This document shows positions 1 to 37,258 of a DNA stretch of 37,258 bases, one piece after another. The translations under genes and the position numbers were made by a program. Position 1 is the first letter of the stretch. The number at the start of each line of letters is the position of its first letter. Source of the DNA: a virus; IMG/VR virus record IMGVR_UViG_3300045988_061146; one strand, given 5' to 3'. Under the pieces are notes generated by a model. It ran no database searches, had not been told where the DNA came from, and saw only the letters and a program-made list of their open reading frames with translations.

Positions 1-74
1 AACTTCTTCACGTCCAGACCAGCGGTCTTCACGACGATATTTTCAAGCATTTTCCGAACGGTCATTTTCTTCAT
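1..74 (-). CDS. 5' end (about 25 codons) of a hypothetical early gene. It is a duplicate of 37160..37233 caused by the circular-assembly overlap, and the gene continues off the left edge.
   Basis: Bases 1..99 are identical to 37160..37258. The reverse complement of 1..74 encodes MKKMTVRKMLENIVVKTAGLDVKKF, which matches the N-terminus of ORF 36967..37248. Confidence 0.5.
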   Translation of the reverse strand, partial: MKKMTVRKMLENIVVKTAGLDVKK

Positions 75-196
75 AACCGGGACCCCCACATAAAAAAATT
101 AGACTGTGCGAAGGCCGTTGACCTTTGCACAATCTAATATTAAATCCCGCCTACGCAAAAGTCAAGATTAAATTGTAAAAAACCTGAAAAAAGTTT

Positions 197-20269: not shown

Positions 20270-21133
20270 TTAGGCCAGGGATTCTTCGATATAGAAGATC
20301 AGGTCAGGGGTCAGGGCCTTCGTGCCGTAGTCGTAGAACATGGACACGCCGTAGTCGTTGGACAGGGGAATCTTCTCCGGCTCTGCGTAGGGGTACATAA
20401 CGACAGGCTGGGCCATAGCACCGTCAACCATGCACAGGGCGCGGGTTGCGGTGGTTCCGGGGGCGACAGGAAGGTTGATGGAAGAATAGACGCGGACGCC
20501 GTGGAACATACGGAAGTCCTCGGCGGCGGTGTCAACGTTCGCGTTGTTGGTTCCCTTATCCAGATAGTTTCTGGCGCGGCCGTACATGACGGGGTCCAGA
20601 ACCAGACGGATCAGGTTGCGGGGTACGCCGCGAACATAGTCGTTCTTCACGGTTTCGACCGCCTGGATCAGTTCTTCCAACTGGTCTTCGACGGTGGTTC
20701 CCTTCGCGGTCAGTTTGGTTCCGGCGGTCTTCGCCTTTGCGAAGAAGTCGGCGTCCAGTTCGGCGGCCACGGTGTCGACGTGGTTGTCGGCGCGACGGGC
20801 CATGATGTTTCCGACGCCGAAGGTGTCCAGGTCGAACTTTGCGGCTTCCTCCACGATCTCGCGGTGAATGTCCAGGTTCACGGTAGTAGGGGGGACGGTG
20901 ATCGCCGCGCCCTTTCCGGCGGTTCTGGCGGTTCCGTATGCCTGGGACGCGCTGTTCTTGAATCGCTTATACTCAACAGAACCAGTCGCGGGGTTGCCGG
21001 TGTAGGACTGGGACTTCAAGCCGGCCGCCAGGGTTTCCTTCTGAATGTTGCTGATCACCAGGCCGGACAGTTCGGACAGTTCGACCTTAGTAGAACCGGT
21101 CTGGATCAGGCTGATCGCTTTCGTTCTTGCCAT
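20270..21133 (-). CDS. Major capsid protein
   Basis: 287 aa, between the scaffold and connector genes, with capsid-like composition. Confidence 0.7.
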   Translation of the reverse strand: MARTKAISLIQTGSTKVELSELSGLVISNIQKETLAAGLKSQSYTGNPATGSVEYKRFKNSASQAYGTARTAGKGAAITVPPTTVNLDIHREIVEEAAKFDLDTFGVGNIMARRADNHVDTVAAELDADFFAKAKTAGTKLTAKGTTVEDQLEELIQAVETVKNDYVRGVPRNLIRLVLDPVMYGRARNYLDKGTNNANVDTAAEDFRMFHGVRVYSSINLPVAPGTTATRALCMVDGAMAQPVVMYPYAEPEKIPLSNDYGVSMFYDYGTKALTPDLIFYIEESLA

Positions 21134-29231: not shown

Positions 29232-29683
29232 TTCTTTTCCTCCGTTTTCACCAGCCGGGCCTGTTCCCAGAAGCCGCGCTCATGCGCGGCCTTCTCTTTT
29301 GCGCTTTCCATGACCTTTTCATAGTTCCGGTATCTGGCGCGCTTTGCTTCGGCTCCGGCCAGAATATCTTCAATAACCTGGTCGACCATGTCCGGCGGGT
29401 AGTAGTTCCGGGGGAACCGGCCGGATAGGTCGTTCTTTGGCTCCGTCAGGTTCAGAATGATATTGAACCGATAGGCCAGGTGTTTCTTCCCGGCGTGGTC
29501 TGCGATCCGAAGGCTGTTCGCCACGCCATAGTCGAACTTCAAATAAACGCTGTTAGTGGAATAGGCGTCGTAGCGGTGAATCAGGACCTTCCCGTCCAGC
29601 CGGTCGCACACATACGCCGCCAGGTCCCGGATTTTCTTCGTGTTCTTATTCACAGTCTTCACCTTCTCCATATTTTTGGTCAT
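29228..29683 (-). CDS. Hypothetical protein, about 151 aa from MTKNMEKV
   Basis: The internal start was chosen so the gene does not swallow the real zinc-ribbon gene upstream. The conserved-looking core is LIHRYDAYSTNSVYLKFDYGVANSLRIADHAGK. Confidence 0.4.
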   Translation of the reverse strand: MTKNMEKVKTVNKNTKKIRDLAAYVCDRLDGKVLIHRYDAYSTNSVYLKFDYGVANSLRIADHAGKKHLAYRFNIILNLTEPKNDLSGRFPRNYYPPDMVDQVIEDILAGAEAKRARYRNYEKVMESAKEKAAHERGFWEQARLVKTEEKK

Positions 29684-29915
29684 AGAAGACGCCGTCGAAA
29701 ATGTCGAAGTCGTCTGCGTCCCAGTACGCTTCGCAATCGGAACAAGCGGCGACAGCGACTTCCATTGGTCCGCCTTCGGCCTTTTTGAAGGTCTTCCGAA
29801 GGCGACCATTTCTTCCGACAACATGATCCAGCGAATACTGATACAGGAAGGACACGACGATTTTCCCGCCGCACAGCGGACAGCGGCTTCTTGGTGTGCC
29901 TTCATTTGATTTCAT
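29646..29915 (-). CDS. Zinc-ribbon protein, 89 aa
   Basis: CPLCGGK ... CSDCEAYW paired CxxC motifs. Confidence 0.5.
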   Translation of the reverse strand: MKSNEGTPRSRCPLCGGKIVVSFLYQYSLDHVVGRNGRLRKTFKKAEGGPMEVAVAACSDCEAYWDADDFDIFDGVFYDQKYGEGEDCE

Positions 29916-29921
29916 TCGGTT

Positions 29922-30284
29922 TCACGTCCTCCCCCAGTCTTGGTCCCCAGTTTCGCAAATATGGACGATGTGTTCGCACAGCGCCGGCGGTATTCGCGAC
30001 CGTTCCTTGCTCCCACTCAATCCCTGGGTCCCAGTCTTCGCCCCGCGCGGGGCCGGTATATGGCACGGGTCCCCATTGTGGCACGGTGGCCGGAACTCCG
30101 GGACCGGGTGATTTGTCCAGATGTCGGTCGGCTTCATACGGGTGTCCCCGTATTGGCAGTAGGTTACAGTGAACCGCCGAAGCCCAGACATAAAGTCCAT
30201 TTTCCGCATACCGCCGCGCGGGTTCTCGATGAACCACCAGGTCGGCGACAGCGACATGATCAGCCCGTGGACGTGCAGATTCAC
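29922..30284 (-). CDS. C-terminal half of a compact C5-cytosine DNA methyltransferase-like protein, motifs VI-X
   Basis: FIENPRGG matches the ENV motif. It is followed by RFTVTYCQYGDTRMKPTDIW and a C-terminal RIPPALCEHIV. Confidence 0.65.
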   Translation of the reverse strand: MNLHVHGLIMSLSPTWWFIENPRGGMRKMDFMSGLRRFTVTYCQYGDTRMKPTDIWTNHPVPEFRPPCHNGDPCHIPAPRGAKTGTQGLSGSKERSRIPPALCEHIVHICETGDQDWGRT

Positions 30285-30583
30285 GCGGTCGCAGAACTTG
30301 GCATATTCCGAAACTGCTTCCAGGTTCGTACCCCCCCCGCAGTGCGGCGGCGGTGTCTGCTGATTGCGGCGATACTGTACGTTGCACAGTCAGGGCTTGC
30401 CCAGATCACGTCAGGACGCCCAAACTTCTGAATAATTTCGTCCGGAGTTATTTGAAGGACATCTTTGTAAAGGTCGATATTTTCGAAGGACTTGTCCCAC
30501 TCGACAGAAAAGACTTCATGTCCACGCGCTTCGAACGCCTTCCCGATAGATCGCGTTCCGGCGAATAATTCAAGAACTTTCAT
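30281..30583 (-). CDS. N-terminal half of the same C5-methyltransferase-like protein (motifs I and IV, with an atypical SPDC instead of PCQ). It ends 50 nt after a G8 homopolymer, and its stop overlaps the downstream ATG as ATGA.
   Basis: MKVLELFAGTRS (motif I-like), SVEWDK, and DVIWASPDCATYSIAAIS (a motif IV variant). Confidence 0.65.
   Translation of the reverse strand: MKVLELFAGTRSIGKAFEARGHEVFSVEWDKSFENIDLYKDVLQITPDEIIQKFGRPDVIWASPDCATYSIAAISRHRRRTAGGVRTWKQFRNMPSSATA
30331..30338. repeat. C8/G8 homopolymeric tract inside the methyltransferase N-terminal half
   Basis: ccccccccgc on the plus strand, encoding A-G-G-V (gcg ggg ggg gta) on the minus strand. Confidence 0.6.
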
Positions 30584-30813
30584 TTTGAGTCACCTTCTTC
30601 CGGAATCGGTTCGTAGCAATCACAGCGGACGACGCGATCTTCTTCGTCTGCGCGGATCGGGCCTGGAAGGCCGGCGTCGGCCCTCTCGACCGCCTTCACG
30701 CAGTAGTCGCCTTCGCGCCCTTTGGCGTCGTCCTTGATGAACTGGACGTTCTGGCAGTTCCGACAGGAAAAGGCGTATTTCCACTTCGGAAGGGCCGGTT
30801 TTCTTCTTCTCAT
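30580..30813 (-). CDS. Small Cys-rich zinc-finger protein, 77 aa
   Basis: CRNCQN ... CDCYEP. Confidence 0.45.
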   Translation of the reverse strand: MRRRKPALPKWKYAFSCRNCQNVQFIKDDAKGREGDYCVKAVERADAGLPGPIRADEEDRVVRCDCYEPIPEEGDSK

Positions 30814-35879: not shown

Positions 35880-36245
35880 TTAAGCCACCCCCCCGCAGAA
35901 TTGAACGCCGGTTTCGACCAGGGCGTCCAGGGAAACGGTCAGGTCCCGCGCTCCGTAGGGCGCGCCCTTGATCCCGTACAGTTTCGCCGCGTCTTTGCAG
36001 TTCAGGACTTCATATTGCAGTTGGGCGAAGATGTGCTGTTCCAGGTCCTTTCCCTTGTCCGGGTCGTAGTTCTCGACGGCGCGGATCATGCGGATCGCTA
36101 ACTGCCGGAAGACGTCTTCGTCGTCCAGGCCGGCGGCACTGATCAGACGCCGGTTCTTGTTGATGGTCCACCAGATACAGCCCAGATGTGTTTCGACCAG
36201 GGCGTTTCGCTCCTGGGTGGTGATCGTCCACTTCAAGGCTGTCAC
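35880..36245 (-). CDS. Sigma-70 region-2-like domain protein, a putative early transcription regulator, about 121 aa from GTG
   Basis: NALVETHLGCIWWTINKNRRLISAAGLDDEDVFRQLAIRMIRAVENYDPDKGKDLEQHIFAQLQYEV resembles sigma region 2. The GTG start is coupled to the upstream stop. Confidence 0.45.
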   Translation of the reverse strand: MTALKWTITTQERNALVETHLGCIWWTINKNRRLISAAGLDDEDVFRQLAIRMIRAVENYDPDKGKDLEQHIFAQLQYEVLNCKDAAKLYGIKGAPYGARDLTVSLDALVETGVQFCGGVA

Positions 36246-36973: not shown

Positions 36974-37233
36974 AGGTTTTTGTCGGGGTCCCCGTTGGTC
37001 TGCTCAACGTCCGGGTTGTAGATTACAGTGACGACGTCTTCGTAACGCTTCGCGGCCACGATTTCGACTTCCCACAGGACATTCCACGTCGCGACCTTGC
37101 AGATCAAATCGACCGCAAAGTCAGCCGTGACGACTTCGCCGTCCATAGACACCAGGTAGAACTTCTTCACGTCCAGACCAGCGGTCTTCACGACGATATT
37201 TTCAAGCATTTTCCGAACGGTCATTTTCTTCAT
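36967..37233 (-). CDS. Hypothetical early protein, about 88 aa from MKKMTVRK
   Basis: Its first 25 codons are duplicated at window positions 1..74 because of the assembly overlap. Confidence 0.4.
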   Translation of the reverse strand: MKKMTVRKMLENIVVKTAGLDVKKFYLVSMDGEVVTADFAVDLICKVATWNVLWEVEIVAAKRYEDVVTVIYNPDVEQTNGDPDKNLW

Positions 37234-37258
37234 AACCGGGACCCCCACATAAAAAAAT

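Follow-up and report, generated by a model that had tools for sequence, protein, structure and literature searches.

Repeat-driven ON/OFF switching of DNA methyltransferases is a known mechanism, described in host genes of a few pathogens and in pglX of Streptomyces. In this work we analyzed a split methyltransferase-like gene located at positions 29922..30583 (minus strand) of a viral DNA of 37,258 nucleotides (nt) (IMG/VR record IMGVR_UViG_3300045988_061146; the whole stretch is hereafter the window). The gene is interrupted at a tract of eight G residues (G8), and we consider, with a probability of roughly 0.8, that this orphan, prophage-borne gene is controlled by a poly-G switch whose length is hypervariable through strand slippage, and that the copy in the window is an OFF allele.

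In the Pgl/BREX system of Streptomyces coelicolor, a G tract in the coding sequence of pglX expands and contracts, turning the gene ON and OFF at a rate of 1e-2 to 1e-4 (Sumby & Smith 2003, as cited in PMC4365076). Like the phage gene, pglX carries its G tract within the coding sequence of a DNA methyltransferase, in a setting of Gram-positive host, G+C-rich DNA and phage-host conflict; however, pglX serves in host defence and its product is an N6-adenine enzyme of >1000 amino acids (aa), whereas the phage gene is a 220-aa, C5-type orphan; the switching rate given above is that of Pgl. The hpyAVIBM gene of Helicobacter pylori codes for a phase-variable orphan C5-cytosine methyltransferase, and natural isolates carry it both in frame and out of frame (PMC3411764). 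Here, as in the phage, the frame of an orphan C5-methyltransferase is set by a simple-sequence repeat, but the repeat of hpyAVIBM is an AG dinucleotide on a pathogen chromosome and its product is of normal size with a target recognition domain, whereas the phage gene is compact, phage-borne and has a homopolymer. The Type III mod phasevarions (ModA, ModH, ModM) of Haemophilus, Neisseria, Helicobacter and Moraxella share with the phage gene the random ON/OFF switching of a DNA methyltransferase by repeat-tract slippage (PMC6902483, PMC5700931, PMC13076061). They differ from it in being N6-adenine enzymes of host-adapted pathogens with documented epigenetic regulation of host genes, whereas the gene described here is borne by a phage. 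In a limited literature search we found no phage-borne repeat-switched orphan methyltransferase and no such switching in gut Clostridia, only prophage-encoded methyltransferases (e.g. PamA) and host-encoded phase-variable ones; in the paper on the CJIE1 prophage the homopolymeric tracts are those of the host, and not of a prophage methylase.

One gene broken at a poly-G tract

The features of the locus, including the two open reading frames (ORF1 and ORF2) into which the gene is split, are as follows.

29922..30583, minus strand: the whole methyltransferase-like gene, as a phase-OFF allele; made G9 it encodes 220 aa identical to P0121 / UWI22557.1
30281..30583, minus strand: ORF1, 100 aa, opening MKVLELFAGTRS, with the motifs LELFAGTRS, SVEWDK and ASPDCATYS
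30331..30338, minus strand: the poly-G tract, G8 (C8 on the plus strand), coding for the Gly run at the predicted hairpin tip that follows motif IV
29922..30330, minus strand: the C-terminal two-thirds of the coding sequence, which run in the -1 frame with respect to ORF1, with ENPRGG (motif VI-like), TYCQYGDTRMKPT (motif VIII-like), the CHNGDPCH Cys/His cluster and RIPPALCEHIVHIC
29922..30284, minus strand: ORF2, 120 aa, GTG start, with WWFIENPRGG (containing FIENPRGG), TVTYCQYGDTRMKPT, CHNGDPCH and RIPPALCEHIVHIC
30580..30813, minus strand: a 77-aa Cys-rich small ORF upstream of ORF1, translationally coupled to it through an ATGA overlap with the ORF1 start

Reading of the minus strand and the ORF list confirmed the ORF coordinates, the motifs and the position of the G8 tract given in a first-pass annotation made from the sequence alone. 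That annotation had placed the tract 50 nt upstream of the ORF junction; the tract is present, but the distance from its end to the junction is 47 nt. It had also described the two ORFs as meeting at an ATGA, which is instead the overlap of the ORF1 start codon with the stop of the preceding 77-aa ORF; ORF1 and ORF2 overlap at GTGA, and ORF2 starts with GTG.

ORF1 and ORF2 are two halves of one gene, broken at the G8 tract. When one G was inserted, an uninterrupted 220-aa ORF reading ...RRRTAGGGTNLEAVSEYAKF... was obtained, which bears out the earlier suggestion that nine Gs would join the N-terminal half to the C-terminal frame; removal of two Gs gave a 219-aa fusion. The genuine N-terminus comprises ORF1 residues 1-84, with motif I (FAGTRS) and motif IV (SPDC, with Cys66), and the 3′ end of ORF1 encodes a 16-aa out-of-frame tail, VRTWKQFRNMPSSATA, followed by TGA. 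Since the window carries G8, it encodes only a truncated 100-aa fragment, and ORF2 is the stranded remainder, namely the part of the C-terminal frame that lies past its first possible start codon. ORF1 is preceded by a Shine-Dalgarno (SD)-like AAGGTG. No SD-like sequence was seen ahead of the GTG of ORF2 or of its first ATG when the minus strand was read over 29700..30800.

The fused protein matched phrog_757 (‘DNA methyltransferase’) with E=2e-41 over profile positions 15-218 of 247. Searched separately, ORF1 covered positions 15-99 and ORF2 positions 115-218, so that they form adjoining parts of a single profile. A search of 5.8 billion protein clusters returned at least 8000 matches to the fused protein; the best 120 of these are nearly all 208-228 aa long, cover 95-100% of the fused protein and are 73-85% identical to it. 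The homologues of ~210-220 aa, at least 8000, are single ORFs. An exhaustive HMMER search of the cluster representatives gave 2594 clusters at E≤1e-3. Members from cultured phages are annotated as ‘C-5 cytosine-specific DNA methylase I’, and a precomputed PF00145 match is present on many homologues. A sequence search against PDB chains gave nothing meaningful, and a megablast of the locus plus 25 kb of the window against cultured phage genomes revealed no relative, the lone match being a 494-bp amidase segment.

The G8 tract is the longest homopolymer in the window. By a rough estimate, ~2 runs of at least eight G or C are expected in 37 kb at 57% G+C, so that a single G8 is not improbable by composition. 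Two other features do go beyond chance: both halves are homologous to a single protein family, and the tract is polymorphic in length in public data.

Tract length alleles and competing explanations

An exact DNA pattern scan for the tract flanks gave no match in IMG/VR or GTDB genomes and one G9 match in JGI metagenomes. Because the DNA scans gave so little, the allele spectrum was taken from exact look-ups of the predicted protein products in public assemblies (Logan, MEGAHIT, SPAdes), after which the DNA was fetched. The alleles found are listed below.

G6, in frame: P0122, 4 contigs, DNA read
G7, out of frame: 226-aa products, ~20 contigs, inferred from protein
G8, out of frame: P0135 (the exact 100-aa ORF1), 51 blocks, DNA read
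G9, in frame: P0121 (= GenBank UWI22557.1), 81 blocks, DNA read
G10, out of frame: P0324 and 3 variants, 93 blocks and ~20 contigs, DNA read
G11, out of frame: P0338, 35 blocks, DNA read
G12, in frame: P0347, 11 contigs, DNA read
G13, out of frame: 228-aa products, 4 contigs, inferred from protein

The G7 and G13 alleles thus probably exist, as judged from their products; products for G5 and G15 were not found by exact look-up. In the DNA of the G6, G8, G9, G10, G11 and G12 alleles the flanks are identical (CACCGCCGCCGCACTGC-Gn-TACGAACCTGGAAGC), and the phage and the gene order are the same. The ten contigs that were read for the exact 100-aa product all have G8, with the 120-aa ORF next in nine of them; the tenth (L008) is a mosaic without an ORF2 call there. 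Several G9 contigs are whole-phage (~37.2 kb), and the locus sampling is not unbiased. As a control, the G6 tracts at 20889 and 22011 were checked and proved invariant across all contigs covering them; this speaks against a general noise of assembly. These data support the leading idea of the first-pass annotation, a compact C5-methyltransferase-like gene made phase-variable by a G tract prone to slippage.

To place the alleles relative to one another, a neighbour-joining tree was built from the ±4 kb flanks of 19 contigs (the window, nine G8 and nine G9). G8 and G9 are interspersed on this tree, and Fitch parsimony requires at least 8 G8/G9 changes, a count that recombination could raise, but a single ancestral frameshift is excluded. 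Nearest neighbours often differ in tract length, as in the window (G8) and L173 (G9), 0.78% apart, or L006 (G8) and L174 (G9), 0.17% apart. In another sublineage, L088 (G10) is an independent OFF allele. Switching of the tract is recurrent.

Sequence comparisons indicate that purifying selection is acting on the whole reading frame, the half downstream of the tract included. Among the ten G8 contigs (L002-L011), a set chosen by exact ORF1 identity, there are two substitution sites; since this set is too small and biased, the ratio of nonsynonymous to synonymous substitution rates (dN/dS) was calculated between sublineages. For the whole gene it was 0.035 between the window (made G9) and L092 (98% aa identity, G9), 0.072 between the window and L001 (85%, G12), and 0.109 between L001 and L092. 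Downstream of the tract (residues 90-212) it was 0.025-0.115 across the same three comparisons. In the 19 contigs, which were partly chosen by exact protein identity, each of the 11 variable sites in the gene is a third codon position when read in the true frame. Five distinct substitution sites were seen among the out-of-frame G7, G10 and G13 products listed, whose selection did not rest on protein identity; in the true frame these are synonymous as well. A decaying pseudogene, one of the explanations offered by the first-pass annotation, is rejected by the dN/dS of 0.03-0.1 on the post-tract half.

The mechanism that we propose is as follows. The poly-G tract would change length through slipped-strand mispairing during DNA replication; lengths of 6, 9 and 12 keep the frame (ON), and lengths of 7, 8, 10, 11 and 13 break it (OFF). 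In the ON state, the protein may methylate cytosine C5 of phage (and host) DNA and so shield it from restriction. The switching would be fast and reversible inside a single population, and the mixture of ON and OFF could be a bet-hedge, e.g. between classical restriction-modification and methyl-dependent restriction, or against a cost of methylation in the lysogen.

Several points weigh against this proposal. In-frame alleles account for ~96 of ~320 occurrences (~30%), an approximate figure, as the counts mix index blocks and contigs, and this fraction is what a neutral length distribution would give; hence selection for either state, ON or OFF, is not directly apparent in the populations sampled, which are mostly from gut metagenomes. 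The tract lengths come from assembled contigs and exact protein products rather than from reads. A second poly-G tract of the phage (35888..35894) also varies, so that high mutability may be general to long G runs in this phage-host system and not the mark of an evolved switch. As for the enzyme, the label ‘methyltransferase’ is a prediction from homology and fold, and a literature search found no biochemically characterised member of the compact family. With PF00145 the fused protein scored 20.3 bits and ORF1 alone 22.7 bits (cut-off 22), only the N-terminal third of the protein being matched (profile positions 1-88), and with TIGR00675 (dcm) the score was 16.8 bits against an NCBIfam cut-off of 100.65.

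For the ‘why’ of the variation, the serious alternative is a neutral fragile site, which makes use of the same DNA mechanism. Here the poly-G hot spot would repeatedly knock out, and sometimes restore, a dispensable accessory gene, with no adaptive switching. The in-frame share is near the neutral one third, the tract lengths follow a bell-shaped distribution centred on G9-G10 with no excess at multiples of three, and the second tract varies from 7 to 13 while altering only a short C-terminal tail, all of which speak for a neutral site. On the other hand, the low post-tract dN/dS and the third-position-only variation suggest that the gene is needed often enough to stay intact. The tract itself has also been retained. 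In five further sublineages that were checked the loop again holds a long run of G, namely G9 (L185/186), G12 (L187), G12 (L001), G10 (L088) and G6-A-G8 (L182-184). The pure tract persists in six sublineages although the synonymous divergence (dS) between those compared ranges from 0.9 to saturated and GGG is a minority codon (21% of the Gly codons of the phage). Synonymous changes should have interrupted a harmful hot spot, and most of the family has no G run there: of the 171 family loci first examined, 147 lack any stretch of at least four Gs in the loop, where RRKNPETGNL is typical. Weighing both sides, we regard the neutral fragile site as unlikely, at somewhat less than one chance in five. 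In other sublineages, in-frame variants in Gly number (GG, GGG, GGGG) and stranded C-terminal fragments were found in the protein collection. In the P0004 sublineage the G tract is interrupted (G6-A-G8; L182/L183), and because of the intervening A it should be stabilised.

It is very improbable that the G8 allele still yields the full-length protein by recoding, either through -1 ribosomal frameshifting on G_GGG_GGG or through slippage of RNA polymerase on the G run, the split being then a programmed mode of expression. Formally, gcG GGG GGG fits the zero-frame pattern X_XXY_YYZ of a slippery heptamer; the product of a -1 slip would be exactly that of G9, and the gene is intact downstream. However, the 116 nt starting just upstream of the tract fold no better than shuffled sequences (z=+0.61; 138 of 200 shuffles were at least as good), the in-frame alleles G6, G9 and G12 are common, and G7, G10 and G13, which would need a shift in the other direction, occur as often as G8 and G11. 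With alleles in all three frames common, no configuration that requires a frameshift is conserved, and programmed frameshifting finds no support, but some low-level, unprogrammed slippage may take place on any allele.

A homopolymer error of sequencing or assembly in a phage that is truly G9 was also raised by the first-pass annotation. Homopolymer indels are a familiar error class, but the exact G8 product recurs in 51 blocks that stem from different samples and from several assemblers (Logan, MEGAHIT, SPAdes), the discrete alleles G6-G12 each recur in many samples, and the G6 tracts elsewhere are invariant; we reject this explanation as highly improbable. The least probable proposal, to which we give almost no weight, is that ORF1 and ORF2 are translationally coupled and give the two subunits of a genuine methyltransferase, as with M.AquI or M.EcoHK31I: the 4-nt GTGA overlap would fit it, but the homologues are single chains and the same phage has an intact G9 gene, ORF1 ends in a 16-aa out-of-frame tail, the GTG has no SD-like sequence, and the break falls inside the catalytic domain between motifs IV and VI, in a modelled beta-hairpin and not at a target-recognition boundary. 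In two-polypeptide C5-methyltransferases of that type the split is kept in homologues and lies at the variable region between motifs VIII and IX.

Motifs and predicted fold of the compact protein

To learn which residues are conserved, 55 diverse members of the family, down to ~37% identity, were aligned. Residues C66, S70, E120-N121-P122, Y142, C143, Y145, K151, T153, C168, H175 and P199 are invariant in this set, and C174 is nearly so. Motif VI, whose Glu contacts the target cytosine in C5-methyltransferases, is therefore ENP in place of ENV. The family consensus for motif IV is SPPC, and the SPDC of the window is a subclade variant in which the Pro directly before the Cys is replaced. In motif I (LFAGTRS; family consensus LFxGTxS) only F7 and G9 are conserved, with a beta1-loop-helix geometry in the predicted model.

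An AlphaFold2 model built on the 55-member alignment had a predicted local distance difference test score (pLDDT) of 95.7 and a predicted template modelling score (pTM) of 0.91. The best 50 Foldseek matches of this model in the PDB are all catalytic domains of DNMT3A/B/C, M.HaeIII or M.HhaI, with E-values of 9e-10 to 2e-7, probability 1.0, query-normalised TM-scores of 0.5-0.6 and 15-18% identity. In the model, a beta-hairpin (strands 78-80 and 88-90) comes just past motif IV, and the Gly run coded by the poly-G tract would form its tip; this post-motif-IV loop varies in length and sequence among the sublineages of the window's subclade. The canonical target recognition domain between motifs VIII and IX is absent from the model. 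In its place there are only ~35 coil residues (158-190), between the last core strand and the C-terminal helices, which carry conserved Cys and His residues that may form a metal site.

The model and the alignment suggest that the compact 220-aa protein belongs to the C5-methyltransferase family by fold, although it shows only part of the features of a strict member. M.HhaI, M.HaeIII and DNMT3 share with it a Rossmann-type fold, a catalytic Cys in a P-x-C context, an E-N-x motif VI and the order of the motifs. In contrast to canonical C5-methyltransferases, it has FAGTRS and not FxGxGG, lacks the Gln of PCQ, has ENP and not ENV, and has no canonical target recognition domain; with M.HhaI and M.HaeIII chains of 324-328 aa, it is ~110 residues shorter. 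The first-pass annotation also took SPDC and the weak Gly loop as possible signs of a base-modification enzyme of a non-canonical kind. This idea found no support, as the family consensus is SPPC, the Cys and the ENP are invariant and the modelled fold is that of DNMT3, M.HaeIII and M.HhaI.

Genes of the same family, phrog_757, are found in the Bacillus phages Bcp1, JBP901, Deep Blue, BCP8-2 and Bc431v3 (58-63% identity over 96-98%) and in Haloferax tailed virus 1 (HFTV1; 34% identity to the window protein). Like the G9 form, they are single ORFs of ~210-220 aa, and they are annotated by homology only.

Four family members of 530-600 aa (P0173, P0175, P0176, P0179) contain inteins, with Intein_splicing, Hint and LAGLIDADG domains. 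The inteins occupy two sites, one at ~residue 65, at the catalytic Cys of SPxC, and the other at ~residue 152, beside the invariant K151 and T153. Inteins usually reside at functionally critical sites, which is indirect support for the importance of the residues at these positions.

The carrier phage and the meaning of a possible switch

The carrier is a temperate siphovirus-like phage of gut Oscillospiraceae. The window has an exact terminal overlap of 99 nt (1..99 and 37160..37258), so that the assembly is circular and the phage genome, apparently complete, measures 37,159 bp; lengths of 37.1-37.6 kb are found for several related contigs. In coding-strand order, the methyltransferase-like gene is preceded by helix-turn-helix genes, Sipho_Gp157, a DnaC-like loader (IstB_IS21), DUF6273 and two small ORFs. 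It is followed by small Cys-rich ORFs, DUF7694, a 3D-domain protein, a single-stranded DNA-binding protein, the small and large terminase subunits, an SPP1-type portal, a Mu F-like protein and a scaffold. The small ORFs that flank it on either side, 29646..29915 and 30580..30813 (both on the minus strand), have paired CxxC-type motifs (CPLCGG...CSDCEAYW; CRNCQ...CDCYEP). They have the look of zinc ribbons, with no family match on record, and are conserved in all related contigs.

The DUF6273 gene of the window phage lies three genes upstream of the methyltransferase-like gene. In the mosaic relative L008 (11834..14213), a reverse transcriptase (RVT_1) adjoins a 563-aa DUF6273 protein, and the pair is possibly a diversity-generating retroelement. 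In the P0004 sublineage (L182/L183 1..1251), the compact gene (216 aa) lies between a 402-aa PF00145 methylase and an MT-A70 methylase, the three being consecutive and overlapping; with two other methylase genes around it, a role in anti-restriction methylation would fit.

Where family members occur in genomes, they lie overwhelmingly in prophages of gut Clostridia, a group better known for switching by invertible promoters. DNA nearly identical to the phage (97-99%) adjoins host genes whose exact proteins are named from different genera:

L173 1..3300: Dysosmobacter host flank (HPF, PIN protein)
L003 500..2300: Gemmiger host flank (sigma-70 factor)
L008 1..3700: Flintibacter/Pseudoflavonifractor host flank (S15, YbaB), in the mosaic relative

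Such flanks could reflect a broad host range, different integration sites, or mis-assembly or mis-naming of metagenomes. Two records are filed under archaea: P0123, a G9-type member of the P0001 sublineage, is a UniRef entry under Methanomethylophilus alvi, and one genome match (L075) lies in a Methanomicrobiales metagenome-assembled genome. Either gut phage contigs were mis-binned or the family truly crosses domains in these cases; it also occurs in the Haloferax virus HFTV1.

The second hypervariable tract has the following position.

35888..35894: second poly-G tract, C7 on the plus strand, G7 on the coding minus strand

Related contigs have 7, 8, 9, 10, 11 or 13 Gs here, most often 9, and in one copy the run is interrupted (TGGGGGG). 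The tract falls within the final codons of an ORF of ~120 aa, directly upstream of the start of the next gene (GGGGGGGTGGCTTAAATG). The effect of a length change is confined to the short C-terminal tail, which is swapped (...CGGVA*, ...CGGGGLNV*, ...CGGGWLKCLSSKTCAA*), and to the G-rich segment ahead of the downstream ATG; because of this swap the called length of the gene varies between 118 and 139 aa among loci.

More tentatively, and with odds that we place well below even, the locus could be an evolved, selectively maintained switch that releases mixed methylated and unmethylated progeny from a temperate phage adjoining host genes of different Oscillospiraceae genera, as a hedge on the side of the phage against classical and methyl-dependent restriction. 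Its product would then be an uncharacterised, minimal (~215 aa) class of C5-methyltransferase, without a target recognition domain and with a Cys/His cluster, whose specificity or chemistry is possibly unlike the canonical one.

The mechanism will hardly surprise specialists, but the carrier, a gut temperate phage, together with the wide allele series in public data and the uncharacterised minimal enzyme, make this a tractable case. The many ‘split’ or ‘truncated’ methylase calls at this locus in gut viromes (e.g. DAR98208.1 and DAR98209.1) are allelic states of one gene. With its great abundance, its very small proteins and its inteins at conserved sites, the compact family is a good candidate for defining a minimal C5-methyltransferase. 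If the switch is functional, gut phage populations would be epigenetically heterogeneous by design, with consequences for host range, for the evasion of restriction and for how metagenomic methylomes are read.

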